This document shows positions 1,827-37,238 of a stretch of DNA of 64,000 nt, piece after piece; within the stretch, counting starts at the first letter, position 1; each line of letters starts with the position of its first letter. The notes beneath the pieces were generated by a model. That model saw only the letters and a program-made list of their open reading frames with translations, was not told where the DNA came from and made no database searches. Source of the DNA: Klebsiella phage vB_KpnM_VPA32; sequence record OP558005.1. The stretch is one strand, 5' to 3'. A program made the position numbers and the translations under genes.

Positions 1827-4017
1827 CTTTTAAGGAAGGAGCGCCTTCCAGCGCTCTCATAATACGGGAGATATCATCGGCATAATTAGCTACACGCCAT
1901 TCATTTAGCATATGTTCGATGACAGGATATTCTTTTTCAAACCTTTTAAATGCAGCGTCAGCCTCAGCTGTAGCAGCATCTGTGAGTTTATTGTAAATCA
2001 GATTACATAAAGCTAAATCTTCTAGAATTTGAGTTGGGCCATCTTGAGCCGATGCAATCGTAGTATTTCTCAAGTTTCTTCCAATTTCATTAATGCGAGA
2101 TACTTTAGTTCCGTTATCTTTACCAGTGATGAACTTCAACATCCATTTCAATTTAGGCGTATTGATGATGTTGCTTACAACACGACGATTAAAGAAGGAC
2201 ATTGGAAGATACTCATCTGGGTCCATATCATCAATAATCTTGATGTACTCATCTACGATGAATCGGTCTAAAGACTCAAGATTATCATTGAGTTTCGCGG
2301 CCTTAGCTGAATTCGGACGAATTACATAGAACTCTGTAATGCCAAATTCTTTTGCCATATTTCGAATAGTTTCAATATCTACACCAGACCACCACAGTTC
2401 GTCAGGGAAAGTACGAATTTCATCACGAGACCTGAAAATAGCATAACCTTCAAGTTCTGCAATATCGTCTTTGTTCATGAACAAGTCTTCAGAAGTCCAC
2501 CAACCACCTTTAGCATCGTACTTATGCAGTTGCCCGTTTGGAGACTTCGGACGAGGGCCCGCAGATTCTTTACCATCAGAGTAATACTCTTTCTCAAACT
2601 TACGATATTCGTCCATTTCAGAAGCTTTAAGAATAACAACTTCATCTTGGTCAAACAGTTTGATAATTTCATCTTTAATTTCAAGATGTTTAGGGTCTTC
2701 AGGGTCAATCATGATAAAACGCTGATATCGGTGGAAGTCTTTCAAATACATTCCACGGAACATCGCCGCACGCCGAGAAGGCTTGTCATCAATCATGATA
2801 TGAACTTTATTCTGCTGAACATTGAGCAGATTTGAAACTGATGTACGCTTTCTCGTTGACCAAGAACTCGTAAGACGCATACGCTCAGCATCCAGGTTCA
2901 CAAGATAAGTGTAAACCATTGAAGACTCAATTTTCTTCTGAAGTTCATTGATACTATAAGTTTCAACCCATTCGCCATAAGTCTTATCACCAAACATAAT
3001 GTTCTGGCGATTCAGAATAGCACGTTGGTTTGAATCAAATTGAGACAGCTGACGAACTAGCTCACGCTTATTCTCAATAGACTGAAGATGTGCAATATCA
3101 GCTTCAAGAGTAGCTTTTTCTAAGCTATTCACTCGTTTCTTGATGTTTTCAATAGTAACATCGTCTAATGAAAGCTCTTCACGAGATGGAGTGATATCAA
3201 GTTCACCAAGAGGGAAATTGATGTAAACGCATCCATAACGATTTAAAAGCCAAGAACACTCAAGACCATCAAATTTGTCGATAGGATAAACAATTTTGCC
3301 ATAAACTGCATACAGACCCTTAGCATCTTTACCAAATCCGTTGGGAGAATGGAACCATTCTACATCTTGTGGGAAAGAGTCAATATGAATGTTTGCGCCA
3401 GTAATAATTGGTTTAACTGGCATCGGACGCATTACATAAGCAATTTCATGCGCAAATTTTTCAACGTCTTCAAGACGAACAGGAACAGTAATTTCAATAC
3501 CAGTCTGCTCGCCTTCTTTCATTGGCTCAACGAACAGAGGACGAATATCAGGTTCGCCATTGTTCATCACAGCCATGTAACCGCGAGCTTCACCTTCGTA
3601 ATAAGAAACGATGGTGAAAGACTTGGTGTAGCTGAATGGAGATTTTGAACCAAGACCAAGAGCACCAATGAAGTCGTTACTTTCAGCTTTTGTTGAAGCA
3701 AAGTAGCTGTTGTACAAACCAGGCTCTTCGTCATTACCACGAATCTGGAAGTCACTCATACCCGGACCGAAGTCACGAATAATGAAACGTGGGTCTAACT
3801 TATTCGGGCATTTGATTTCGCATGGAACATCTTGCTTTCCATTCAGAATGTGAGCATCAAGCCAGTTGGTTGTAAGCTCACGAACAACAGCACGAATTTT
3901 GTTCTTATAGAGCTTATCAGACAAAATCATAAAGGCCTTGGGAGAAGCCTGAATGGTGAATTTAGTTTTCTTACCAGCAGAACCTAAAACTTCTTCATTA
4001 TCAGCAATTAATTTCAT
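1807..4017 (-). CDS. rIIA: rIIA protein
   Basis: 736 aa; N-terminal IRAVVRELTTN, LDPRFIIRDFGPGMSDF and NSYFASTKAESNDFIGALGLGSKSPFSYT match T4 rIIA (725 aa). Confidence 0.9.
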   Translation of the reverse strand: MKLIADNEEVLGSAGKKTKFTIQASPKAFMILSDKLYKNKIRAVVRELTTNWLDAHILNGKQDVPCEIKCPNKLDPRFIIRDFGPGMSDFQIRGNDEEPGLYNSYFASTKAESNDFIGALGLGSKSPFSYTKSFTIVSYYEGEARGYMAVMNNGEPDIRPLFVEPMKEGEQTGIEITVPVRLEDVEKFAHEIAYVMRPMPVKPIITGANIHIDSFPQDVEWFHSPNGFGKDAKGLYAVYGKIVYPIDKFDGLECSWLLNRYGCVYINFPLGELDITPSREELSLDDVTIENIKKRVNSLEKATLEADIAHLQSIENKRELVRQLSQFDSNQRAILNRQNIMFGDKTYGEWVETYSINELQKKIESSMVYTYLVNLDAERMRLTSSWSTRKRTSVSNLLNVQQNKVHIMIDDKPSRRAAMFRGMYLKDFHRYQRFIMIDPEDPKHLEIKDEIIKLFDQDEVVILKASEMDEYRKFEKEYYSDGKESAGPRPKSPNGQLHKYDAKGGWWTSEDLFMNKDDIAELEGYAIFRSRDEIRTFPDELWWSGVDIETIRNMAKEFGITEFYVIRPNSAKAAKLNDNLESLDRFIVDEYIKIIDDMDPDEYLPMSFFNRRVVSNIINTPKLKWMLKFITGKDNGTKVSRINEIGRNLRNTTIASAQDGPTQILEDLALCNLIYNKLTDAATAEADAAFKRFEKEYPVIEHMLNEWRVANYADDISRIMRALEGAPSLKGESENE

Positions 4018-4022
4018 ATTTC

Positions 4023-4229
4023 TCAGTCACAGTGTCGTTTTATTAGGTTAGCTACATCCAGAAGTTCTTCCGCAGTAGCCGTATCGGTGATAAAAATTTT
4101 ATTACGAATTTCTTTAAAGCGCTCTTTGAATTCTTCAGCTTCTCCAATGTCAAAGAAGCGTTGAATGATACGATACTCTTTGTAGACAGCATCGTCGAAC
4201 AGTTCAGCTGAAGGTTTGAGATTTAACAT
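4023..4229 (-). CDS. hypothetical small protein (rIIA.1 position)
   Basis: 68-aa ORF, coupled to the upstream stop. Confidence 0.45.
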   Translation of the reverse strand: MLNLKPSAELFDDAVYKEYRIIQRFFDIGEAEEFKERFKEIRNKIFITDTATAEELLDVANLIKRHCD

Positions 4230-4507
4230 TTGATAGTTCCTATTGAGTTAAGTATTTTCGCCATTTGTTTTATTGTATACTTTTCTCGGCGATTGTAAAC
4301 CACCTTCAAAGCGAACGTACGAAGGTTCATAGGAATGGTCTGGCGAGTTTCAATACAGTTGACAATATAATCTATTGCCTGTTTGAATTTAATGTGATAG
4401 GGGTCATCTGGTGAACCTCCATGCTCAACTAGATGTCGTTCTCCATTCTGTTTGATACATTCTGCTACATTTTCAAGATTTACTAAAGTGCCATCTTCTA
4501 GAATCAT
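4223..4507 (-). CDS. hypothetical protein
   Basis: 94-aa ORF preceded by terminator hairpin and GAGGTGAG Shine-Dalgarno. Confidence 0.5.
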   Translation of the reverse strand: MILEDGTLVNLENVAECIKQNGERHLVEHGGSPDDPYHIKFKQAIDYIVNCIETRQTIPMNLRTFALKVVYNRREKYTIKQMAKILNSIGTIKC

Positions 4508-15846: not shown

Positions 15847-16239
15847 TCAGTCACAGCTAAAGCCTCCGCCAGTGTCACAGGATGAATGTGAGGGACTATC
15901 AATATATGAAGTTGTATGTATCATTGGACTATCAGAATAAGATGCTCTAGATGGACTAGAGTAACTCTGGCGATTAACCGGAGTATGAGTAACGCGTCCG
16001 GTGTAAGTCTGTCCATTTTTCTGGACTTTTTCTTTCTTTACGATTACTTCTTCCATCATACCATCGCCCATGTAAATCCATTCACGCTGTTCATTAGCGC
16101 CTTCTTCGTAAGCAACAGCCATGTCATTAGCTCCATACATATGCTGTTTAATGCTTTCATCAAGGCGAGTTTCTTCAACTTTGATTTGAGCATCAGGGCG
16201 AGGATTACCAAATAACCCTCTCACAAAGTTCATAATCAT
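15847..16239 (-). CDS. hypothetical protein
   Basis: ORF begins with TTG; ATG with GGAGA Shine-Dalgarno at 16239; Ser-rich C-terminus. Confidence 0.4.
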   Translation of the reverse strand: MIMNFVRGLFGNPRPDAQIKVEETRLDESIKQHMYGANDMAVAYEEGANEQREWIYMGDGMMEEVIVKKEKVQKNGQTYTGRVTHTPVNRQSYSSPSRASYSDSPMIHTTSYIDSPSHSSCDTGGGFSCD

Positions 16240-16487
16240 CAATATCTCCAATTCAAAAACTGGATGTTAAATACGTTTCTTTTGTAAACACCATCAACTT
16301 TGACTAAATCATAATACAAAACTTCGATAGCACATTCAAGAGATGTTCCAACTTCTCGATAGGCGTGTAACTTAACGTCAACGAAAAAGTCGGTATCAGT
16401 TTCTTTTTCTATGTACTTTAAGCGAACCAAATCACTGATTCCGCCACAATCGCCTACCGGTTTACGCCATGGTGTAGTTTTAACATT
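16239..16487 (-). CDS. hypothetical protein
   Basis: Start moved to MNVKTT with AGAGGA Shine-Dalgarno. Confidence 0.4.
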   Translation of the reverse strand, partial: NVKTTPWRKPVGDCGGISDLVRLKYIEKETDTDFFVDVKLHAYREVGTSLECAIEVLYYDLVKVDGVYKRNVFNIQFLNWRY

Positions 16488-16544
16488 CATAGTATTTTCC
16501 TCTTTTGGTGAAGTCATTATACACTACTCTATAAAAGCAAAAAA

Positions 16545-16564
16545 GGGACTCCCGAAGGAGTCCC
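16545..16564 (-). terminator. intrinsic terminator after soc
   Basis: GGGACUCC-UUCG-GGAGUCCC followed by UUUUUUGCUUUU. Confidence 0.7.
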
Positions 16565-16571
16565 TGCATTA

Positions 16572-16814
16572 TCAATCACCGGAAGCTGGTTCTGGCTTAA
16601 ACAGATTTTCGTTTGCAGTAATCCATGCATCACGCTGATTCTTTTCAAACACTGTTGAATAAGCAGCTTTTTCTGATGGGAACACTTGGTAATGAGAGTT
16701 AGCAACACGATGAACATCAGAATACAGTTCAAATGCTACAGAAATTTCTTTACCTTTAACTTCGCCAGCAGATGTAGTGTGGTCGAAGGTTTTTAAGTTT
16801 ACATAACCGCCCAT
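16572..16814 (-). CDS. soc: small outer capsid protein Soc
   Basis: 80 aa; GYVNLKTF, GKEISVAF.LYSDVH, HYQVFPSEKAAYSTV match T4 Soc; followed by a strong terminator. Confidence 0.88.
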   Translation of the reverse strand: MGGYVNLKTFDHTTSAGEVKGKEISVAFELYSDVHRVANSHYQVFPSEKAAYSTVFEKNQRDAWITANENLFKPEPASGD

Positions 16815-16826
16815 GTGGTTTCTCCT

Positions 16827-17039
16827 TTATTGATTAACAGGATTATTTATAATAAAGCTCTGGTTAACACTAAAATAACCAATTTTAGTCAAAATGACAA
16901 CTTGCCCATTAATAACAACAGGAGAATAATCTTCAGGAGTATTGAATTTCCAATGAGCCCGAATTTCATACCCATCAGAACCGTTTGATGGAGCGGCTGG
17001 TCTCCCAGCCTTCTGCCATGAATAAAAATCAAATACCAT
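16827..17039 (-). CDS. hypothetical protein
   Basis: 70-aa ORF. Confidence 0.4.
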   Translation of the reverse strand: MVFDFYSWQKAGRPAAPSNGSDGYEIRAHWKFNTPEDYSPVVINGQVVILTKIGYFSVNQSFIINNPVNQ

Positions 17040-17557
17040 TAATAGCCTCGTTCTTGACGAGCAAAGTTCTCTGCATTTTTCAGATAATACAGTTTGAATA
17101 CTTCTTCAGCAGTCATGCCAAGAGCCATGATTTTATTCAGGAAGAAGTGCAGTTGGTCAATCAATTCAAATTTAATTTCAAGCTGGTCTTCTGGAGACAA
17201 GTCTTTAATTTTCTTAGCCTGCATTTCTACGTGCTGAGCTTTCCAAGGTTTCCACACAGCAGATGCTGCTTTTTCGCCATTGCTCATACCACCGAGTGCA
17301 GTGTACAGCTCGCGAGTTTCATCTGCAATATAATCATCTTGTGCACGTAACCAAGCAAGAACTTCACCGGCAGTTTCCAGAGAATCTGGATGACGGTTAC
17401 TGAATGGTTTATCTTCAGCCAGTTTAACTTGCAGAGATTTCTGCATATCGAGCATTACTTGTAGAGGGTCTTGACGATTATCAATTACTGCATTATACGC
17501 ACCATTTGCTTGGTCAGCGCCTTCAATCAGATGTGAGCATTCATTAAAGTGAGCCAT
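17039..17557 (-). CDS. 56: dCTPase/dUTPase gp56 (MazG-like dCTP pyrophosphatase)
   Basis: 172 aa, sits upstream of soc and downstream of 61 as in T4; length as T4 gp56 (171 aa). Confidence 0.75.
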   Translation of the reverse strand: MAHFNECSHLIEGADQANGAYNAVIDNRQDPLQVMLDMQKSLQVKLAEDKPFSNRHPDSLETAGEVLAWLRAQDDYIADETRELYTALGGMSNGEKAASAVWKPWKAQHVEMQAKKIKDLSPEDQLEIKFELIDQLHFFLNKIMALGMTAEEVFKLYYLKNAENFARQERGY

Positions 17558-17602
17558 TGTGTTTTCCTTTTATCAAATCAGAAATAAATTATATCATTAA
17601 CT

Positions 17603-17887
17603 TTATTTAGCAACGAATCCAAGTTCTTCAGACATTTTGCGGAATTTTTCCATCTTTTCAAATTTCTTCCAAACTTCTTCTCTGTCTTCTACGAAATCAA
17701 AATCGGTGTGTATTCTCAAATTCAGAAGACACCCCATGATATCATTCAATTCACCAATTAATCGTGCTCTATTAGTCTTGCCTTCATATTCAGAGTCAAT
17801 TCCAAACTGAATAATCTTTGAGCAAAGCATTGCAACTTCATTGCATTCTTCACCCAATTTAAGAAAAGCATGTTGTTCTATATTCAT
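17603..17887 (-). CDS. hypothetical protein (61.x position); no Dam methylase here
   Basis: 94-aa ORF. Confidence 0.45.
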   Translation of the reverse strand: MNIEQHAFLKLGEECNEVAMLCSKIIQFGIDSEYEGKTNRARLIGELNDIMGCLLNLRIHTDFDFVEDREEVWKKFEKMEKFRKMSEELGFVAK

Positions 17888-18912
17888 ATTTTAGCATACC
17901 GAGTGAATCTCATCTTAGCCATTAAGCCTGATTCGATATTGTTGTTGATGTAATCCATGATTTGTTCGGGTGTAGCACCTTCTTTCATAATCATGTCGTT
18001 CACGTCTTTTGAGGACCAAGGTGACTTATCCCAAAAGACAACTCTTTCTCCGGCGTCAATAAGCTTCTTCATACGCTTGACTGTGTCCGGATGTCGTGGT
18101 TCATGGTCCATAATCCAAGCACGATTTCCTTCATAAGGAACCATGCTCAACTCAATAGACCCACCAGTTATTGCAATAGCATTGTCGATAAACAAACTAT
18201 CCAATGGTCCTTCCATAACAAACACGAGCTTATTAGGGTCTACTGTATCTTGACCATAAATTTTTGTAGCAAGCTCATGCGCTTTAATTGTCATGTATTT
18301 TTGGGGAGCGTCTTTTGAGAGGGCTCGCCCTTGGAAGGATTCAATTTTGCCTTTTTCATTAAAGATTGGAATAACCAAGCGCGGTTCATTTTTCTCATGC
18401 GAGTATGTACCTTCGTTTACTGAGTTAACGAGAGCCGGCCATTGAGTAGTAAACCACAGTCGGTTCCATTTATCTTTAGGAATTTTACGTCCAGCGACGT
18501 ATTTGCATATTGGATGAGCTGGTGAAAGCCTATCTAATCGCTCACAGTAATCGAGCTTTTGAATGAACTTCTTTTCAACAGGAGGAAGTTTAACTTCTTT
18601 TTTAGGAGCCGAGCGAGCTTGACCTTGTTCTTTACGAACTTCAAGAATGTATTCTCGATATAAGTCAGGTTCATTTTCTCGCAGATATTTAGCCAGTCCT
18701 AAGTGTGCATCACAGTTATAGCAATGGACTACGATTCCGCCAGTTGGTTGTTCATAAGCCCATCCACGAGCTTTGAATTGGTCTTTTTGTGAGTCACCAC
18801 AAATTGGACAACGGAAATTCAGTTTAAAACGATGACCGTTTGTTACTTGTTTGAATCTTGGAAGGTGTGAAAATGCGCGATACGCAAACTCGTTATCAAC
18901 CCATGAAGACAT
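17884..18912 (-). CDS. 61: DNA primase gp61
   Basis: 342 aa (same as T4 gp61); N-terminal zinc ribbon CPICGDS...HCYNC; TOPRIM-like acidic motifs. Confidence 0.88.
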   Translation of the reverse strand: MSSWVDNEFAYRAFSHLPRFKQVTNGHRFKLNFRCPICGDSQKDQFKARGWAYEQPTGGIVVHCYNCDAHLGLAKYLRENEPDLYREYILEVRKEQGQARSAPKKEVKLPPVEKKFIQKLDYCERLDRLSPAHPICKYVAGRKIPKDKWNRLWFTTQWPALVNSVNEGTYSHEKNEPRLVIPIFNEKGKIESFQGRALSKDAPQKYMTIKAHELATKIYGQDTVDPNKLVFVMEGPLDSLFIDNAIAITGGSIELSMVPYEGNRAWIMDHEPRHPDTVKRMKKLIDAGERVVFWDKSPWSSKDVNDMIMKEGATPEQIMDYINNNIESGLMAKMRFTRYAKI

Positions 18913-22867: not shown

Positions 22868-23236
22868 TTAAAATAGTTTGAAACGTTTTTTCTTTCTCAT
22901 AATCTCGGCATGAGCCTGTTGAATTTGTATTTTAATACATTTTTCAACATGTGGTGCAAGGTCGGCTTTTCGTGATTCGTCCAACGTAGAGAACTCTAGT
23001 GACACCTGGCCGCATTCATCCAAGTGTAATGAGGTAACATATACGATATGTTCTTCGCCGTCCTCTAGTGTTATCAGGATTTCCTGGACTACATTCTCCA
23101 TAGCCTTTTGGATTATCTCAAGACTCTTTTTGAACATCCGTTCAGTTCTTTCAAATTCCCCCTCCGAAGAGGGGGTTTCATCTTGAACTTCAACATCAGT
23201 CAAATCGAGGTCTAAATCCTCGAAATCATTTTTCAT
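22868..23236 (-). CDS. gene 40-position protein (acidic, 122 aa)
   Basis: Sits between uvsX and 41 as T4 gene 40; sequence not confirmed. Confidence 0.4.
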   Translation of the reverse strand: MKNDFEDLDLDLTDVEVQDETPSSEGEFERTERMFKKSLEIIQKAMENVVQEILITLEDGEEHIVYVTSLHLDECGQVSLEFSTLDESRKADLAPHVEKCIKIQIQQAHAEIMRKKKRFKLF

Positions 23237-24426
23237 TACAGACCTTCTGTTGGACCACCCATAGGTTCGTCGTCATAGTTGTCAAGTTCGTCTTCGATTG
23301 AAGCTGGAGTTGCTCTTACTTCGCCTTCCGGAGCGTGGAACACTTCGGTCTTCGAATTAATCAGAGCATCAACTTCTTCATCTACTGTTGCGTTGGTTTC
23401 AATAGCACCCAACTGATAGCGGTTCTTAATAGCATCACGGAACGGTTGATGTTTAAACAGAGGACCCCAGAAAGCAGTAGTGGCCGTGTCTTTAGCTCGC
23501 CATGATTTCTCTTCACGAACCATTTCACCAGTGTCTATGTCCAGATATTCTCGGGCATACCAACCATTTTTCGGTTTAACTACAAACCCAAGTTCCAGCG
23601 CCATATCCAACAGACCAGAGTAAGGGTCAATACCACCATCGAATTTAACATCGATGAAGAACTTACTCTTCTCTTTAACAGTACGAGATTTCTCAGCGTT
23701 CAGAACAAACTGATAACCTTGAAGTTCTGTACCATCTTTAATTTGACGTTTACCGATGATGAACACAGTATCTGCTGAGTACATTGGACCAGTACCACCA
23801 GTCATCACAGTCTTACTGAACATCTCAATTGTTTCGATTGTATGGTTAACCGCAACGCATGGAATATTCTTAATAGAGAAGTAAGGTGTAACAATACGGA
23901 ACAGAGACTTCAGTGATTTCGCACGAGTCATATCCGCAACTGATTTTTCGTTCAGAGCATCTTCTGTTTCTTTCTTAGAAGCCAGGTTACCGATGGAGTC
24001 GATGAATACGATAACTTTCTCACCGCGTTCAATTTCTTCCAGCTGGTTGACCATGTCAATTTTAAGCTGTTCAACAGATTGTACCGGAGTGTGTACTACA
24101 CGGTCAGGGTCAACACCCATTGCACGAAGATATGCTGGAGTGATACCGAATTCTGAGTCGTAGAACAGACAGATGGCATCCGGATATTTTGTCATATAAG
24201 CGGAAACCATAGTCAGACTCATATTTGACTTGAAGTGCTTTGACGGACCTGCAAAGATTGTTAAACCTGATTGCATGCCACCATCTAATGCACCTGAAAT
24301 CGCGATATTGAGCATCGGAATCTTAGTACGAACTACATCTTTTTCATTGAAGAATTTGGACTTATCCAGAGATGCAGTCATTTTAGAAGTGGATGCTTTA
24401 ATCAGACGAGATTTTAAATCAGACAT
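23236..24426 (-). CDS. uvsX: UvsX recombinase (RecA-like)
   Basis: 396 aa; GPSKHFKS Walker A-like; colinear with T4 UvsX (391 aa). Confidence 0.9.
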   Translation of the reverse strand: MSDLKSRLIKASTSKMTASLDKSKFFNEKDVVRTKIPMLNIAISGALDGGMQSGLTIFAGPSKHFKSNMSLTMVSAYMTKYPDAICLFYDSEFGITPAYLRAMGVDPDRVVHTPVQSVEQLKIDMVNQLEEIERGEKVIVFIDSIGNLASKKETEDALNEKSVADMTRAKSLKSLFRIVTPYFSIKNIPCVAVNHTIETIEMFSKTVMTGGTGPMYSADTVFIIGKRQIKDGTELQGYQFVLNAEKSRTVKEKSKFFIDVKFDGGIDPYSGLLDMALELGFVVKPKNGWYAREYLDIDTGEMVREEKSWRAKDTATTAFWGPLFKHQPFRDAIKNRYQLGAIETNATVDEEVDALINSKTEVFHAPEGEVRATPASIEDELDNYDDEPMGGPTEGL

Positions 24427-24481
24427 TAATTATTTTCCATAAGTCTCCATAATATTTTTCTCACAGGTTTAAGATAGAGTA

Positions 24482-24505
24482 ATTATATCAACTACGGTTT
24501 AAAGC
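24482..24505 (-). promoter_or_regulatory. MotA-type middle promoter upstream of uvsX
   Basis: Minus-strand GCTTTA (MotA-box-like) then 12 nt then TATAAT. Confidence 0.45.
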
Positions 24506-24561
24506 GGATTGCAATGTGGTGAATCATTTTGACAAGGTGTGTAACAACAAGCATTACAATG

Positions 24562-24582
24562 ACCACCGACAAAGTCGGTGGT
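24562..24582 (-). other. stable RNA hairpin between beta-gt and uvsX (no U-tract)
   Basis: ACCACCGAC-UUUG-GUCGGUGGU, 9-bp stem. Confidence 0.4.
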
Positions 24583-24589
24583 GTATTCT

Positions 24590-25666
24590 TTAGATTTCAA
24601 TTGCTTTTTTGAATTCAGCTTGCCAAATTGGTTTTTCATCAAGATATTTTTGAAGAATTTTGTGCTGATATTCAAGAGTTTCAATTCTGAAGTCCTCATC
24701 GCTTTTGATTTTATTAATTTTATCAACAAGCTCTTGACGATTGCTCACATAGAAGAACTCATTGCCTTCCATGATATTCATATCAGGGTCAAATGTGCTA
24801 TCGAAGAATGCTACTGCAGTAGATGCCAGAGCTTCCCATACACGTGGAGTGATTTGGTTATTATCGTAAGTCTTATCACCGAGCACGATAGTAGCATACG
24901 CGGTTGAGTTACGCTGAACCATTTCACGAGAATCTACCTTGCCAGGAAATACTGGTGGAGTAGTCCAAGGGAATTCTGGGTTCTTGAATTGGTCTGCCTT
25001 AACTGAACCGAAGAACTCAACGTCCAGTCCAGTGTCAAACAGATATTCAACCATCTTTTGTTCGCGATTACCAGAACGGAAAGTTCCACCATAAATCAGG
25101 TCGCGCATTTTGATGCCATCAGCAGCAATCTTGAAGACGCTGTGATACATCTTATGACGGTCCAGTGCAAAATGAACAAATTCCATTCGGTCCTTAGAGA
25201 CACCAACTAAACGGTCAGAGTGAATTCGTTTAGCTTGTTCCAGGTCACGGCCTTGAGAAATTACACGAATTGGAGAGCGAACAATGAACTGCTCTTCAGT
25301 GTATTTGCTGGACCATTTTTTCTTCGACATTCGACGCCATGCTTGTTCCCACGGAAGACGAATATCAGTGAACAGATAATAAATCTTTGACTTATATTTG
25401 TTCAAGAACATATAAGCCGCTTTATTCATCTTGTTCTCTTCACCGCCATAGAAGTTCAGAGAAGCATTCACTACCAGAACTCGGTCATATACATTCGGGT
25501 CTGGGACATCATCAAATGCGATGCCATATTGAGTATTTTTCATTGAAATGAGGTCAACATCAAGCCCCATATCTTTTAAGCATTCGGACAGATAAATTGT
25601 CTCAGAAGCAGGGGTTGTTTTAAACCCCTGGATGTTGTTACCTAAGTTCAGGATAGCAATTTTCAT
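24590..25666 (-). CDS. bgt: DNA beta-glucosyltransferase
   Basis: 358 aa; MKIAILNLGNN, KYKSKIYYLFTDIRLP, IKSPIRVISQG, VEFFG, FKNP.YPWT match T4 beta-gt. Confidence 0.9.
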   Translation of the reverse strand: MKIAILNLGNNIQGFKTTPASETIYLSECLKDMGLDVDLISMKNTQYGIAFDDVPDPNVYDRVLVVNASLNFYGGEENKMNKAAYMFLNKYKSKIYYLFTDIRLPWEQAWRRMSKKKWSSKYTEEQFIVRSPIRVISQGRDLEQAKRIHSDRLVGVSKDRMEFVHFALDRHKMYHSVFKIAADGIKMRDLIYGGTFRSGNREQKMVEYLFDTGLDVEFFGSVKADQFKNPEFPWTTPPVFPGKVDSREMVQRNSTAYATIVLGDKTYDNNQITPRVWEALASTAVAFFDSTFDPDMNIMEGNEFFYVSNRQELVDKINKIKSDEDFRIETLEYQHKILQKYLDEKPIWQAEFKKAIEI

Positions 25667-26499
25667 AAAGTAGGCTCAATCTCACTGAATTTTTTGAAAG
25701 CATCTGACTTTTGTTTCTTGGCTACGCACATACGAAGTACTTTCAGAGGCTCGTCAGTGCCAAACATAGTTTTGGTTGGGTCACCTTCTGATTTCCAACG
25801 AGCTTGAGTTGGGAAGTCAGCATGAATTTTTTCTAATGCGCGATTTTGTTTAGCCGCATTACGCATAGATGATACGCCGCCAGGAGCTTGTCCTTTGCCA
25901 GATTTGACGAGATATTTGAAAATCGCCAGATGAGGATAACCCATATTAATGAGTTTAAGGAATGCGTATGTATCTTCGGACAGGTCTACTATACCATATC
26001 CAATGTCATCGGCAGAAAGTTTGCTTAAATCGTAAAAAGTGTTAGTGAATCCATAAGAGTTCTCACGGAAATGACCCCACTTAGAATCAATCTTGAAAAT
26101 AGGCAAACGAGCATGGCCGTGATAGAATCCACAGTCCATAGCTGCTTCAACATACTGAGTGAGTTTATTGAATTCGTCCCATGTCATTCCAACATCGTGA
26201 AGAATACGGCGGTCGTCTTTAGCACGAATTTCAGTAGTATGAATTGTAGTGTCATCGTCCAGCATCCAGATTCGTTGACCTTGATACATTTCAGTAATAA
26301 GACGACGTGTACCAGCAATACCATTTACATCATCTGGAATAGGAATAATTTGTGCTTTATCACCATAGTAGGCGATATAATCATCTTTCTGAGACTCACG
26401 AACTACTAAATGAGGTACATAACCAGTAGGGAACATATCAAGGGCAGTAACTGCCCCGACACGATTGTAACTCGGAATTACAAATTGAATCATTTCCAT
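25663..26499 (-). CDS. GT-A/GT2-like glycosyltransferase (putative second DNA sugar transferase)
   Basis: 278 aa; N-terminal FVIPSYNR (GT2-type first strand) and IWMLDDDT DxD motif; inserted between 42 and beta-gt. Confidence 0.65.
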   Translation of the reverse strand: MEMIQFVIPSYNRVGAVTALDMFPTGYVPHLVVRESQKDDYIAYYGDKAQIIPIPDDVNGIAGTRRLITEMYQGQRIWMLDDDTTIHTTEIRAKDDRRILHDVGMTWDEFNKLTQYVEAAMDCGFYHGHARLPIFKIDSKWGHFRENSYGFTNTFYDLSKLSADDIGYGIVDLSEDTYAFLKLINMGYPHLAIFKYLVKSGKGQAPGGVSSMRNAAKQNRALEKIHADFPTQARWKSEGDPTKTMFGTDEPLKVLRMCVAKKQKSDAFKKFSEIEPTL

Positions 26500-27227
26500 T
26501 TGCCTTTGTAGTCAGATTTCTTAACATCAATCCGGCCGGTTTGACGATAATGGTCAACCAGATAGAAATGACGCTCATACACGTGCAGAGACCCAGCGTT
26601 CCAAATAATGTCGCCTGGAACATATTTTTCACCAGAACCTGCATTAACTGTTTCTACTAATGATTCTAACACATATTTCTGCCAAGCATAATCATTGCGG
26701 AAACCAAATACAACATCATTGCTTCGCATATTAACGACAGCGTTTACACGACCATCACGAATAAGATATTGAACTGTGTTAGTGCACATGAAATCACTCA
26801 TACCATCACGTTCAAAATCAATTTGCATACTTGGACGAGTGTAAATCATAATTGCACGACGAGAATCTGGTTTTTCAATCAGCTCAGTTGCGCAGAATGA
26901 GAATTGATTGTAGTTTTCAGCAGACCAGATTGCCCAGCCATAGTTTGAGTTAATTTCACCCTTTGAAGATGAAACTTGTTCCCAAATTGCTGGAGTACCA
27001 CCTGGAATATCTTTTACGAACAGAGACTTGGATTTGTACCACGCAAGTTCACGTTCAACATATTCTTGGTTAACTGTTCCGAAAATTGAATCTTCGGTTA
27101 CTACAAAAGATGGACCAATTAACTCAATGGTCTTTGCGCCAGTTTTGTCAATTACAAACATCTCGTTGAACAGAGCATGGCACAGTTCATCACGAATATC
27201 TTCGTTAGTCAGTGGAGTTACAATCAT
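26490..27227 (-). CDS. 42: dCMP hydroxymethylase gp42
   Basis: NSNYGWAIWS, MCTNTVQYLIRD, NMRSNDVVFGFRNDYAWQKYVL match T4 gp42; start moved to MIVTP. Confidence 0.9.
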   Translation of the reverse strand: MIVTPLTNEDIRDELCHALFNEMFVIDKTGAKTIELIGPSFVVTEDSIFGTVNQEYVERELAWYKSKSLFVKDIPGGTPAIWEQVSSSKGEINSNYGWAIWSAENYNQFSFCATELIEKPDSRRAIMIYTRPSMQIDFERDGMSDFMCTNTVQYLIRDGRVNAVVNMRSNDVVFGFRNDYAWQKYVLESLVETVNAGSGEKYVPGDIIWNAGSLHVYERHFYLVDHYRQTGRIDVKKSDYKGKWK

Positions 27228-27664
27228 TTTGCCTCTTCGTAGTTTTTCTTCATACAACGTTTAAATGCTTCATATTGGCCAGAAGACCTGAAGTTTTCAA
27301 ATGCGTTGATATTTTTGCGGGTAGGATTATTATACATTGTTTGATATAAAGCAGCACCATGTGCTTCAATGACAAACTGACATTTACGAGCAGCTACTCG
27401 CTTTTCATAAGTAGCGTCAAGTTCTCGCTGCTTTTTCATAACGCGCGCTTGGTCACGAGCGATAAGGTCATTAGCCTGCTGCTGAGCAAGATACTCTTCG
27501 CCTTCACGAATAGAAGACTGCTTGACCTGCGGAGTTGAACGAGCATACACCAGACCAGTGCCGCCTACATACTTAACTTGCCCTACAGTACTAGCATGAA
27601 CAGTGTCTCCTTGATAAGCACAACCTGCCAGTAACATAGCAGCAGCTACTGCTAAAAATTTCAT
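27224..27664 (-). CDS. lipoprotein (sits where T4 has imm)
   Basis: MKFLAVAAAMLLAGCAYQG signal peptide plus lipobox. Confidence 0.55.
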   Translation of the reverse strand: MKFLAVAAAMLLAGCAYQGDTVHASTVGQVKYVGGTGLVYARSTPQVKQSSIREGEEYLAQQQANDLIARDQARVMKKQRELDATYEKRVAARKCQFVIEAHGAALYQTMYNNPTRKNINAFENFRSSGQYEAFKRCMKKNYEEAK

Positions 27665-27674
27665 TTCAATATCC

Positions 27675-27899
27675 TCATTTGTGAGTTACAAGTTTATAAG
27701 TCCAATCACTTTCATCTTCACGATAGATGTTAACGATAGAAGTCTCTTTGAGCTTAGCTCGCAGATTCTTTTCAGTAATTTCAGTGCCATCATCAAAGAA
27801 AATCTTATCAGCACCACCAGCACTCAGGAAGTAAAAAGTGCTTCTGAGATTGAACTTCAGTACTGGAATGTAGCTGTCGTCAGTGATTGAGTAAATCAT
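27675..27899 (-). CDS. hypothetical protein
   Basis: 74-aa ORF. Confidence 0.4.
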   Translation of the reverse strand: MIYSITDDSYIPVLKFNLRSTFYFLSAGGADKIFFDDGTEITEKNLRAKLKETSIVNIYREDESDWTYKLVTHK

Positions 27900-27958
27900 T
27901 TTATTCTCCTTTGTGTATAGAAGAATTATACCACATCCATGTGGTAATGTACAATGCT

Positions 27959-30667
27959 TTAGAAATCAAACATATTGTCTAAAGATGCTTTTTCTTCATA
28001 GTCCAATCCAGAAGCTTCTGACATACCAGCAAGAGGCTTAACGAAAGACTTTTGGAACAAAGTCGTATAGTCCAACCAAGCCAGAACATCTTGACGAATT
28101 TCCTGTGGAAGTTCAGTACCTGATGGCCAGGCGATACACTTGTCACCGAATGGGTTACCCTGACGAAGTGGAAGAACCATCACCTTGTTACCCTCGAGAA
28201 TCGGAGTGACAGAGAATCCTGCCGTTGCACGATTATAAGTCAGTGCACCACGAACGTGATACGGGCATTTTGGACCAGGGAAACCATTATCGTCATATTT
28301 ACCAATGTCATTGCAAGTTTTAACTTCTGCAATAACTTTGTAGTCCAGCTGACGATATTCCTTCTCAAACTGTTTGTAGTATTCTTGCAGTGATTCTTCG
28401 CCTTCTTGAACCATACGACGAATACTTTCTTCCAGCGCTTTCTGAACCGCTTTTGGAGTAGAAGATTGCTGAGTTTCCATGCCCATAATCTTCAAGTGTG
28501 GTTCAGCATAACGCTTATCTTCCATGTCGTAAACGTTCAGTGCATAACGTTTCTTAGCTTTCCAGAATCCACCACAACCTTTTGAACCAAGCGGTGGACA
28601 CGAAATAGCTTCTCGGTCCATATGCATGAGGTGTTCACGGTTATTGAAGTACTCGCACAGTTCACGATAAGCGGTATCAATCATCGGTTCCATTTTCTTC
28701 TTACCGAATTGGTTCATAAATTCAACCACTTCGTCAGTTGTTTTGAAACGTTCAAGACCTACTTTTTCAATAACTTTGTCAACTGAAACATAGATTGAGT
28801 CAGTATCACCTGCTGCGATGAAATCAAATCCTTCGGTTCCACACACTTTATTCAGATACTCGTTAACTTTACGAGCAATCCAACGAATACCTACTTGACC
28901 AAACAGTGTAATCGCAGATGCGTTACGAAGGTCGTAATAACGGAAGTAAATGTTACCCAAAGCACCATAAAGACTGTTGATAAGAATCTTACGGTTCAGC
29001 TGGTTTGTGTTTGCCAGAATAGCAGCAGATTCACAACGAGCCAGCATAGTTTCCAGCACTAACTTAGTGTACTTATTCAGAGACGCTTTCTGTTCGTCAG
29101 TGTACTGAGTGTAACGAGTTTCATCTGGAGTATCAATGTCGCCAAATACGCCAGCAGCTAAAACTTTCTTAATTTCTTCTGCGTTACGCTCTTCTGCGAA
29201 CATCTTTTTCTTCCAATCTTTACGCTGGAAGAACACCTTAGCGATTTCTACCGGGATGACACCTTCAATATCTTTACGATACATCCAACCGTTCGGTGAG
29301 CAAGAATACTCGTCACTTGGACGTGGTGCAGTCTTATTGATATAAGCTTCGATATCATAAAGTTTGAATTGGCCGACAATCGTTTCCGGAGAAATATTCA
29401 CCTGACGAATGATACTCGGATACAGAGATGTTAAGTCAAAACTCATGATGTACTTACGAGCACATGCTAATGGTTCAAATACATATGCACCTGGATAGCT
29501 TTGCTTGATATGACGCTTACCTTGAGGAACAACTTTGTTCTGTTCTTTCAGGGAGTTAAAGATAATTGCGTCCCAAGTTTTAATCGGAGACATTACGCCA
29601 CCGAATGGCATCTTGGCATAATAAGACATACTAAGTGCCAGGTCAATGAATCCACGAACTCGGTCAATACCACCTACGGACTCAACGTCCATAATGTTAT
29701 AGCTAATGTATCGTTGGTGATTTGTTTCACGAAGTTTGTTAATTGGACCATCGTATGGCAACTTACCACGTTTAGTCTCGTACAGAGCGATGTAGTCCAA
29801 GTTATAAGTTGGTTGGTTCGTGAATGAATACTTCTTGTACAAATCCATGTAATCCAGAATTGTTACACCATCAATGCTGAATACTTCTTTTTCACCGTAC
29901 ATGTTCTGAATGAGTTTTGAATTCACTCGATTGATTGGAGAGAATCGTTTCATTGTACGTTCACCCAACACATTCTTAACACGGTTCATGATGTATGGAA
30001 TATCGAAGCCTTCAATGTTCCAGCCTGTGAAAATTGCTGGACGCTTTTGTTCCCAGAGATTGATGTATTCCAGAAGAAGTTCTTTCTCTGAATAGAACGG
30101 CATGTACACTACGCGGTCAAGAATATGTTGTGGAACTTCATCACCACCTTCTTTATCGCTTCGTGCTGCTAGCTTCACGTCCCATTCTGAAACTGAACCA
30201 TACAGAGAATCCAGTAAGTCGAAAACGTAGAACTTATCATCGATTGAATCATAATGAGTGATTGCATCGATTTCGTACATAGCTTTCATTGGGTCTGGGA
30301 ATTTGTCACCTGTAACTTCGATGTCACAGTTCGCTACGCGGATAAATTTCTTATCATAGACAATTTCAGAACCATAAGTGTCGGAGATATAAGCGAGTTT
30401 GAAGTCATCCATACCCATGGCTTCAAGACCGATATCTTCCATACGACGAATCCAATCACGAGCATCTTTCATGGTTGGGAATGTGTTCTTGACGCATGGT
30501 TTCCCATAGATATCAAAGAACTTTGTCTTCACACCTTGTTGGGCGTGAGAAAACATCGTTGGAGAATATTCAACTCGTCGTTGACGTTCTACACCATTTG
30601 AGTCAATATAACGTTCAATGATGTCATTACCTGCGGTTTCAATAGAGATATAAAATTCTTGTGCCAT
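27959..30667 (-). CDS. 43: DNA polymerase gp43 (family B, with 3'-5' exonuclease)
   Basis: 902 aa; colinear with T4 gp43 (EFYISIET, DIEVTGDKFPDP, SLYPSII, DTDS, KKRYA). Confidence 0.95.
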   Translation of the reverse strand: MAQEFYISIETAGNDIIERYIDSNGVERQRRVEYSPTMFSHAQQGVKTKFFDIYGKPCVKNTFPTMKDARDWIRRMEDIGLEAMGMDDFKLAYISDTYGSEIVYDKKFIRVANCDIEVTGDKFPDPMKAMYEIDAITHYDSIDDKFYVFDLLDSLYGSVSEWDVKLAARSDKEGGDEVPQHILDRVVYMPFYSEKELLLEYINLWEQKRPAIFTGWNIEGFDIPYIMNRVKNVLGERTMKRFSPINRVNSKLIQNMYGEKEVFSIDGVTILDYMDLYKKYSFTNQPTYNLDYIALYETKRGKLPYDGPINKLRETNHQRYISYNIMDVESVGGIDRVRGFIDLALSMSYYAKMPFGGVMSPIKTWDAIIFNSLKEQNKVVPQGKRHIKQSYPGAYVFEPLACARKYIMSFDLTSLYPSIIRQVNISPETIVGQFKLYDIEAYINKTAPRPSDEYSCSPNGWMYRKDIEGVIPVEIAKVFFQRKDWKKKMFAEERNAEEIKKVLAAGVFGDIDTPDETRYTQYTDEQKASLNKYTKLVLETMLARCESAAILANTNQLNRKILINSLYGALGNIYFRYYDLRNASAITLFGQVGIRWIARKVNEYLNKVCGTEGFDFIAAGDTDSIYVSVDKVIEKVGLERFKTTDEVVEFMNQFGKKKMEPMIDTAYRELCEYFNNREHLMHMDREAISCPPLGSKGCGGFWKAKKRYALNVYDMEDKRYAEPHLKIMGMETQQSSTPKAVQKALEESIRRMVQEGEESLQEYYKQFEKEYRQLDYKVIAEVKTCNDIGKYDDNGFPGPKCPYHVRGALTYNRATAGFSVTPILEGNKVMVLPLRQGNPFGDKCIAWPSGTELPQEIRQDVLAWLDYTTLFQKSFVKPLAGMSEASGLDYEEKASLDNMFDF

Positions 30668-36891: not shown

Positions 36892-36908
36892 ATTTCACCT
36901 CTGAGGAC

Positions 36909-36933
36909 ATTATATTCCATACTCCAGAAAGCA
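36909..36933 (-). promoter_or_regulatory. MotA-type middle promoter upstream of gene 47
   Basis: TTTCTGCTTTC (good MotA box) then 13 nt then TATAAT, directly after the UUCG hairpin. Confidence 0.5.
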
Positions 36934-36935
36934 GA

Positions 36936-36953
36936 AAGGGCCCGAAGGCCCTT
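36936..36953 (-). terminator. UUCG-tetraloop hairpin before gene 47
   Basis: Identical GGGCC-UUCG-GGCCC followed by UUUCUGCUUU. Confidence 0.5.
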
Positions 36954-36974
36954 AATTAAAATCCGTCGAATTCA

Positions 36975-37238
36975 TCAAATTTTCTTAACGAGAACATAAC
37001 CCAATTCCTCGGCTAATTTCTTAGCTTCATTGAATTTTTTCAACATTTCAGTTTTTGAATTACGAATGGCTTCATAATCAATTTCCGCTTTAGGCCTTTC
37101 AGATGAATTGCAGATATTACAAAATATCGAACGTTTTGGACCGATATAATTGATACCGCAATCTCTGCATGTGCACATATAATCGCCAGAAGACCAATCT
37201 TGAGGCATACTGCGAGGCAACATTAAAGTTTCCACCAT
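36975..37238 (-). CDS. small zinc-finger protein
   Basis: 87 aa; CTCRDC...CNIC pairs. Confidence 0.45.
   Translation of the reverse strand: MVETLMLPRSMPQDWSSGDYMCTCRDCGINYIGPKRSIFCNICNSSERPKAEIDYEAIRNSKTEMLKKFNEAKKLAEELGYVLVKKI

Follow-up and report, generated by a model that had tools for sequence, protein, structure and literature searches.

What does an additional sugar transferase gene do between gene 42 and beta-gt, two genes of the DNA-modification pathway of T4 and its relatives? In T4 itself, gene 42 is directly followed by beta-gt. In Klebsiella phage vB_KpnM_VPA32 (OP558005.1), of which a stretch of 64,000 nucleotides was analyzed (hereafter, the window), a preliminary description made from the sequence had placed a 278-aa open reading frame (ORF) between the two genes and proposed that it encodes a second sugar transferase. 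The T4 gene order is as described, and the ORF is present on the minus strand (25663-26499, 278 aa from the ATG at 26499). It is close to certain that this ORF is the Karamvirus ortholog of the beta-glucosyl-HMC-alpha-glucosyltransferase of T2 and T6 (ba-gt, ggt, or g-gt; HMC or hmC, 5-hydroxymethylcytosine), a member of the PF20691 family (TET-associated glycosyltransferase, TAGT) with a GT-A fold. The gene, the family, the fold, and the gene arrangement are already known. The question that this locus raises is a chemical one: which base would be made by a TAGT whose partner is beta-gt?

Identity of the TAGT gene

25663..26493, minus strand: TAGT, ortholog of ba-gt, a DNA glycosyltransferase with a GT-A fold; 276 aa from the second ATG at 26493, assigned by phrog_842, the T2 comparison, the GT-A model, and the ratio of nonsynonymous to synonymous substitution rates (dN/dS)

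The TAGT sequence matches phrog_842 (beta-glucosyl-HMC-alpha-glucosyltransferase) with an E-value of 5.4e-80 from residue 2 to residue 274 (profile positions 3-268 of 270). A comparison with the T2/T6 enzyme had been suggested, and it revealed a full-length ortholog in which 180 of 276 residues (65%) are identical to those of T2 ba-gt. A database protein of 276 aa, identical to the window TAGT, has a precomputed PF20691.4 assignment, and PF20691 was matched by all 11 aligned homologs at E < 0.01 (best 4.9e-12). The T6 enzyme has been placed in PF20691 and modelled as a GT-A enzyme, sister to GT2 (NAR 2026). In the searches of other collections, Glycos_transf_2 (PF00535) gave no match to TAGT at E <= 1 in the Pfam scan, no NCBIfam model matched TAGT, and none of the solved structures in the Protein Data Bank matched it by sequence.

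The ORF is not a chance reading frame, because it has the phrog_842 match, because tblastn found the TAGT family in 687 phage records of the phage collection, and because the dN/dS is low (0.05 against S16 and 0.17 against CC31). The TAGT gene is under strong purifying selection. It is intact in 59 records at identities of at least 80%, spanning Karamvirus, Gelderlandvirus, and relatives.

Which of the two ATG codons is the start? The ATG at 26493 (MIQFVIPSY, 276 aa) corresponds to the start in T2, in Klebsiella phage Mineola, and in the identical database protein. In the RefSeq annotation of CC31 and S16, the upstream ATG was chosen (837 nt). The choice bears on the 4-bp overlaps that had been reported on both sides of the ORF. 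On the beta-gt side, the overlap is exactly an ATGA, in which the TAGT stop codon occupies 25663-25665 and the beta-gt ATG 25666-25664. Toward gene 42, a start at 26499 gives an overlap of 10 bp, and only a start at 26493 gives the 4 bp (ATGA, 26493-26490). The same ATGA junction of gene 42 and TAGT was found in T2, S16, Mineola, and Escherichia phage vB_EcoM-G3F9.

The conserved residues were examined in a family alignment of 11 homologs; residue numbers refer to the 278-aa frame.

26461..26484, minus strand: FVIPSYNR, N-terminal strand motif, residues 6-13; I8, P9, S10, Y11, and R13 are invariant in the family alignment
26251..26259, minus strand: DDD, DxD metal/UDP-sugar motif, residues 81-83, codons GAC GAT GAC; invariant in 11 of 11 homologs
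25972..25977, minus strand: E175-D176, candidate catalytic base; invariant, at the N-terminus of helix 175-185 and 93 residues past the DxD

Both motifs named in the preliminary description, FVIPSYNR and IWMLDDDT, are present at residues 6-13 and 77-84, respectively. By analogy, FVIPSYNR was assigned as the usual nucleotide-binding start of GT-A/GT2 enzymes. In the predicted model, TAGT forms a single Rossmann-like alpha/beta/alpha domain, as in the GT-A fold, and the DDD ends the strand 76-80. Thus, the proposed GT-A fold and DxD motif are borne out by the predicted model and by the invariant DDD. TAGT would be a DxD-dependent, GT2-like enzyme, and therefore probably an inverting one. By its distance from the DxD, which is that of the catalytic base in inverting GT2 enzymes such as SpsA and TarP, the E175-D176 pair may hold this base. 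Other residues invariant in the family are HGH 127-129, GFTN 150-153, K202, GG.S 207-210, and R213.

A variable patch was also seen. As many as 10 of the 12 differences between the TAGTs of the window and CC31 lie in the 15 residues from 39 to 53 (26341-26385), which form helix 35-45 and strand 50-54 of the model. This patch is variable in every other lineage as well.

Gene order and the absence of alpha-gt

The 3.3 kb around TAGT have 98.3% DNA identity to Klebsiella phage vB_KaeM_KaAlpha and 96-98% to Enterobacter phages PG7, CC31, and their relatives. By these identities, the window belongs to the genus Karamvirus (CC31-like) of the Tevenvirinae. Its TAGT is 100% identical to the KaAlpha protein and 95.7% identical to CC31p040 (12 residues differ). 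RefSeq names CC31p040 a beta-glucosyl-HMC-alpha-glucosyltransferase, and the accompanying note likens it to the T2 and T6 enzyme. The pairing of beta-gt and TAGT in CC31-like phages was published in 2010 (Petrov et al.), and a table by Thomas et al. 2018 lists CC31, PG7, S16, STML-198, Moon, Merlin, STP4-a, and PS2 with beta-gt and TAGT and without alpha-gt (PMC6024577). Thus, the idea of a possibly undescribed enzyme has to be dropped, with the family, fold, gene, and arrangement all present in the literature and RefSeq.

The gene order in T4 is 42-beta-gt-segA-uvsX, with alpha-gt at a distant site. T2 has 42-TAGT-uvsX, with alpha-gt 12 kb off between genes 47 and 55, and Mineola (Jiaodavirus) is arranged as T2. 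The order 42-TAGT-beta-gt-uvsX, without alpha-gt, is that of the window, CC31, and Salmonella phage S16. In Serratia phage PS2, whose TAGT belongs to a 48% identical lineage, TAGT also lies directly upstream of beta-gt. Thus, TAGT is "extra" only relative to T4. Relative to T2 and T6, it is in its usual slot, and beta-gt is the addition.

Is alpha-gt really absent? A tblastn search of the 64-kb window with T4 alpha-gt found none (best E 3.7), and the place where it would be expected is empty.

36892..37225, minus strand: empty alpha-gt site; gene 47 and a-gt.3 lie only 334 bp apart, and a 1.2-kb alpha-gt is present at this place in T4, T2, Mineola, and G3F9

For the genome beyond the window, the absence of alpha-gt leans on the published table, in which CC31 and PG7 are without it (PMC6024577). 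Counts by host name were also taken across the phage collection. Enterobacter phages have 27 TAGT and 27 beta-gt, with no alpha-gt among the listed top ten. Salmonella phages have 28 TAGT, 16 beta-gt, and 12 alpha-gt, and Citrobacter phages have 15, 9, and 6, respectively. These counts fit one TAGT and one first-sugar enzyme per genome.

The proposed base

24590..25666, minus strand: beta-glucosyltransferase (beta-gt), GT-B, 358 aa; PF09198 (T4-Gluco-transf) E 4e-60, phrog_7922 E 9e-222, 49% identity to T4 beta-gt
26490..27227, minus strand: gene 42, dCMP hydroxymethylase, 245 aa; 69% identity to T4 gp42

The window beta-gt keeps the T4 residues D100, R191, R195, Y261, R269, and E272 in the alignment. 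In the T4 BGT structures, these are catalytic and UDP-binding residues. The enzyme is presumed to make the acceptor of TAGT, beta-glucosyl-hmC. The diagnostic residue of gene 42 is the Asp in RSND; the window has MRSNDVVFGFRND, as in T4 and T2, in contrast to MRSQN...QLD in RB69 gp48. A hydroxymethylase is recognized by an Asp at the position of Escherichia coli ThyA D169, where 5-hydroxy-dCMP synthases have an Asn, together with an Asp at the N177 position (PMC13326640). Since gene 42 of the window carries the Asp of the hydroxymethylase type and not the Asn of the RB69 gp48 type, the base to be decorated is hmC.

The proposed pathway is as follows. Gene 42 would make hm-dCMP, and hmC would enter the DNA. 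The adjacent beta-gt, a GT-B enzyme, would attach a beta-linked glucose to hmC. TAGT would bind UDP-glucose via D81/D83 and a divalent metal and, probably using E175/D176 as the base, would add a second, beta-linked glucose onto the first, at the 6-OH by analogy with T2/T6. The product would be a diglucosyl-hmC whose disaccharide is beta-bonded to the base, unlike the alpha bond of the gentiobiosyl-hmC of T2 and T6. The beta bond is proposed because the phage has beta-gt and no alpha-gt. The expected gain is additional shielding of the DNA against defenses that recognize or strip mono-glucosyl-hmC. The analysis showed the orthology, the fold, the conserved motifs, the gene order, the purifying selection, and the lack of alpha-gt in the window, whereas the donor sugar, the acceptor, the linkage, and the fraction of bases modified are inferred. 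As a whole, the pathway, with beta-gt acting first and TAGT adding a second glucose, has in my judgment a somewhat better than even chance of being correct.

The second-sugar role of the TAGT family is established. T6 with a deleted ggt has about 75% alpha-glucosyl-hmC (bioRxiv 10.64898/2026.02.25.707755), and phages with alpha-gt and TAGT contain alpha-gentiobiosyl-hmC by liquid chromatography-mass spectrometry (PMC13390438). Given this role and the T2/T6 orthology, the suggestion that the DNA carries a second sugar beyond mono-glucosyl-hmC is likely to be right. Can TAGT extend a beta-linked glucose? It is plausible that it can, because second-sugar DNA glycosyltransferases unrelated to TAGT take alpha-Glc-hmC as well as beta-Glc-hmC (PMC8256090), because a T2-type TAGT of G3F9 sits in a 42-TAGT-beta-gt cassette, and because no convincing residue signature separates TAGTs partnered by beta-gt from those partnered by alpha-gt. 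Only three columns of the family alignment split beta-partnered from alpha-partnered TAGTs (V171/I, D228/A-E, and E273/A-K); these are conservative and confounded by phylogeny, and no convincing specificity signature was found in the alignment. In the identity matrix of TAGTs, the clades follow the phage genus and not the type of partner. The chance seems about even that the Karamvirus, Gelderlandvirus, Moonvirus, and PS2 group has a DNA base unreported in the literature found, namely a beta-linked diglucosyl-hmC (beta-gentiobiosyl-hmC or another Glc-Glc) made by beta-gt and then TAGT.

Alternative explanations

Several points weigh against a diglucosyl-hmC made in this way. The acceptor that biochemistry has defined for the family is alpha-glucosyl-hmC, which cannot be present in the window phage. 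At 35% of positions, the residue of the window TAGT is not that of the T2 enzyme, and this divergence would suffice for a new acceptor or donor. Residue 209 (25873-25875) is Val in the Karamvirus/Gelderlandvirus/Moonvirus clade, while it is Cys (GGCS) in all other aligned lineages. In the Pfam scan, the sole match of TAGT was to its own family (PF20691.3), at 26.2 bits against a cut-off of 27.5 and for the N-terminal 120 residues only. The candidate E175/D176 base was assigned by spacing and topology only. Wider-family members, like the GT2-type enzymes of TET clusters, transfer the first sugar straight to 5hmC (NAR 2026; PMC8256090). No nucleoside or sugar analysis of the DNA of Karamvirus, Gelderlandvirus (S16), Moonvirus, or Enterobacter phages was found in the literature searched.

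The main alternative is that TAGT glycosylates bare hmC in parallel to beta-gt, as alpha-gt and beta-gt do in T4; the DNA would then have two mono-glycosyl-hmC bases and no disaccharide. The absence of alpha-Glc-hmC, the normal acceptor of the family, would be in line with this, as would the GT-II of TET clusters, which sets the first sugar on 5hmC (PMC8256090), and the 288 of 753 phage genomes that have a TAGT homolog without alpha- or beta-GT (NAR 2026). However, those solitary TAGTs were described as distantly related (NAR 2026), while the window TAGT has 65% full-length identity to the T2/T6 enzyme, and T6 that lacks this enzyme still has mono-alpha-glucosyl-hmC. The host-name counts also speak for a second-sugar role, as they add up (27 = 27 beta for Enterobacter, 28 = 16 beta + 12 alpha for Salmonella, and 15 = 9 beta + 6 alpha for Citrobacter). 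Moreover, T4 beta-gt alone glucosylates all hmC, and little free acceptor remains (bioRxiv 10.64898/2026.02.25.707755). I regard direct glycosylation of bare hmC as unlikely, and the two remaining explanations as less likely still.

One of these keeps the second-sugar role and changes the donor: the second sugar may not be glucose (e.g., GlcNAc or galactose), which would give a hetero-disaccharide on hmC. The 35% divergence from the T2 enzyme would permit such a change, and the second-sugar glycosyltransferases of metavirome TET clusters use UDP-GlcNAc besides UDP-Glc (PMC8256090). In contrast, the sole characterized TAGT members, those of T2 and T6, take UDP-glucose from the host pool (PMC2993671), and the putative donor-side motifs IPSY.R, DDD, HGH, and GFTN of the window TAGT are identical to those of T2. 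RB69 has an arabinose cluster beside its gene 42 homolog, whereas the annotation of the corresponding 43 kb of CC31 contains no genes for sugar-nucleotide synthesis. A non-glucose sugar had been considered in the preliminary description; nothing was found that points to one, and it seems distinctly improbable. The other explanation is that TAGT is decaying or has lost its function in a lineage where beta-gt replaced alpha-gt, or that it acts on a target other than DNA. Here too the missing acceptor could be cited, and laboratory stocks of T2 and T6 carry apparent TAGT lesions, so that the gene can be dispensable in culture. But a dN/dS of 0.05-0.17, intact genes in the 59 records mentioned above, the retention of all family-invariant residues, and the conserved position directly upstream of beta-gt in the 48%-identical PS2 lineage make this explanation very improbable. 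Thus, the preferred reading is still that beta-gt attaches the first glucose and TAGT would add the second.

Neighboring genes and the putative transcription unit

27224..27664, minus strand: 146-aa lipoprotein-like ORF with an LAGC lipobox (MKFLAVAAAMLLAGC); phrog_1754 (function unknown), without a Pfam family; its TGA overlaps the gene 42 ATG (ATGA)
27675..27899, minus strand: 74-aa ORF with a good ribosome-binding site (AAGGAG) and a promoter-like site upstream; no family matched
27925..27953, minus strand: sigma-70-like promoter match TGTACA-17-TATAAT, 10/12, with TG; a consensus match only, just past the gene 43 stop codon
24562..24582, minus strand: GC-rich 9-bp hairpin, 8 nt past the beta-gt stop codon, in the 163 nt that separate beta-gt from uvsX; the coding strand lacks a clean T-run

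Three ATGA overlaps chain the 146-aa ORF, gene 42, TAGT, and beta-gt, with the 146-aa ORF first. The products of these ATGA-joined genes would probably be made together early in infection. The site at 27925..27953 is a possible start of a transcript that covers the 74-aa ORF and the four chained genes, and the hairpin at 24562..24582 is a possible end of the transcription unit. Sigma-70-like sites are no more numerous in the region than expected from shuffling; the operon boundaries are tentative because the promoter scan is at this background level. Neither an Rfam family nor a tRNA was detected when the window was scanned for them.

The 146-aa ORF has 37% identity to S16 gp27, and its position is that of imm/imm.1 in T4. 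The 74-aa ORF has no counterpart in CC31, which has only 64 bp between the lipoprotein gene and gene 43.

Between the window and S16 (23236-30667), divergence has a mosaic pattern: the protein identities of TAGT, beta-gt, and uvsX are 90-93%, with synonymous distances (dS) of 0.95-1.3, while those of gp42 and gp43 are 73% and 82%, with dS of 1.7-2.0. This is only suggestive of a more recent shared history of the sugar-transferase block than of its neighbors, as all dS values are near saturation. Among the genes of this block, TAGT shows the lowest conservation within Karamvirus (95.7%, compared with 97.7-99.6% for the others).

TAGT genes of T2, T6, and G3F9

I found apparent lesions in the TAGT genes of T2 and T6 records. 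Codon 11 of the T2 gene (ggt; PV958097, 17007-17849) is His (CAT), at the place of the Arg of IPSY.R found in all other aligned members. The His is identical in 8 of 8 T2 records, whereas this codon is CGT in teqskov and RB14, the closest relatives. This His could underlie the low gentiobiosylation of T2 (about 5%, against 72% in T6). In T6 MH550421, ggt (1638-2480) has an amber codon at codon 10 (CAG to TAG), and the coding sequence is annotated from an internal Met. In T6 NC_054907/AP018814, ggt (61-900) is one GAT short in a (GAT)3 run, so that the DDD (DxD) motif has become DD. The (GAT)3 run looks prone to slippage; the window has GAC GAT GAC instead.

G3F9 (MZ234037; Tequatrovirus) has alpha-gt, a T2-type TAGT (96% identical to that of T2), and a beta-gt homolog (3193-4395, 16007-17931). 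The beta-gt homolog is 358 aa in length, is annotated as hypothetical, and has an ATGA overlap with TAGT. Its identity is 55% to T4 beta-gt and 44% to the beta-gt of the window. KMB26, CHD2BS1, and PM123 seemingly have the same beta-gt homolog adjoining a glucosyl transferase gene.

Significance

As a discovery, the TAGT gene of the window adds little to a family, a fold, and a gene combination already in the literature and RefSeq. Its interest lies in a question put by others, namely whether TAGT is blind to the anomeric linkage of the first glucose or whether there are two kinds of TAGT (NAR 2026). Karamvirus phages, with beta-gt and TAGT and no alpha-gt, are a clean natural test of this question. 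If the proposed pathway is true, a T2/T6-type TAGT would either accept its substrate whatever the anomeric bond or have been re-tuned by very few residue changes. The phages would also have a shield distinct from those of T4 and T6 against defenses directed at glucosyl-hmC, such as Brig1, BapA/Brig3, and GmrSD-type enzymes. The answer bears on which hosts and defenses (Type IV restriction, DNA glycosylases, deglucosylases, and CRISPR) are able to stop therapy phages of Enterobacter, Klebsiella, Salmonella, and Citrobacter. It bears on enzymatic 5hmC labelling tools as well.

Comparison with known systems

The nearest orthologs, those of Karamvirus, Gelderlandvirus (S16), and Moonvirus, are 93-100% identical proteins with the same 42-TAGT-beta-gt-uvsX order, and no difference of substance was seen. 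PF20691 includes the T6 enzyme, and its GT-A fold is common to the window TAGT. As to the TET association in the name of the family, no TET/JBP dioxygenase is annotated in the corresponding 43 kb of CC31; hmC would come by the gene 42 route, and the T2/T6 members are likewise without TET. The GT2-type GT-A structures of TarP, TarS, RmlT, AvpGT, WrtF, and K4 chondroitin polymerase have 9-17% identity to TAGT. Their acceptors are polymers or lipids, whereas the acceptor of TAGT would be a modified base in DNA.

T4 alpha-gt and beta-gt belong to the same pathway as TAGT and use the same donor, but they have the unrelated GT-B fold and place the first glucose on hmC. The arabinosyltransferases of RB69 (ORF003c, gp46/47) occupy a genomic niche of the same kind, between the gene 42 homolog and uvsX. 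They are GT-B enzymes that transfer arabinose and act on 5-hydroxycytosine, whereas TAGT is a GT-A enzyme for hmC, and no homology is detectable. A check against the RB69-type enzyme, which had been suggested, revealed no relationship (hhalign probability 1.3% for ORF003c). An RB69 arabinosyltransferase identity for TAGT was thus rejected, on this value and on the GT-A model against the GT-B fold. In every lineage compared, a DNA sugar transferase lies between the gene 42 homolog and uvsX: beta-gt in T4, TAGT in T2/T6, TAGT and beta-gt in Karamvirus, and gp46/47 in RB69 (NC_004928, 3048-5214). This slot looks like a conserved place for the exchange of DNA-glycosylation cassettes.

Most phages that carry these glycosyltransferases pair TAGT with an alpha-GT or a beta-GT (NAR 2026). 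The ba-gt of T2 and T6 has the same length and the same invariant motifs as the window TAGT and the same slot directly 3′ of gene 42 with an ATGA overlap. In T2 and T6, its partner is alpha-gt, and it extends alpha-glucosyl-hmC. In contrast, the sole first-sugar enzyme of the window is beta-gt, encoded directly downstream of TAGT. Thus, the anomer of the acceptor must differ from that of T2 and T6, because beta-gt is the only first-sugar enzyme here.

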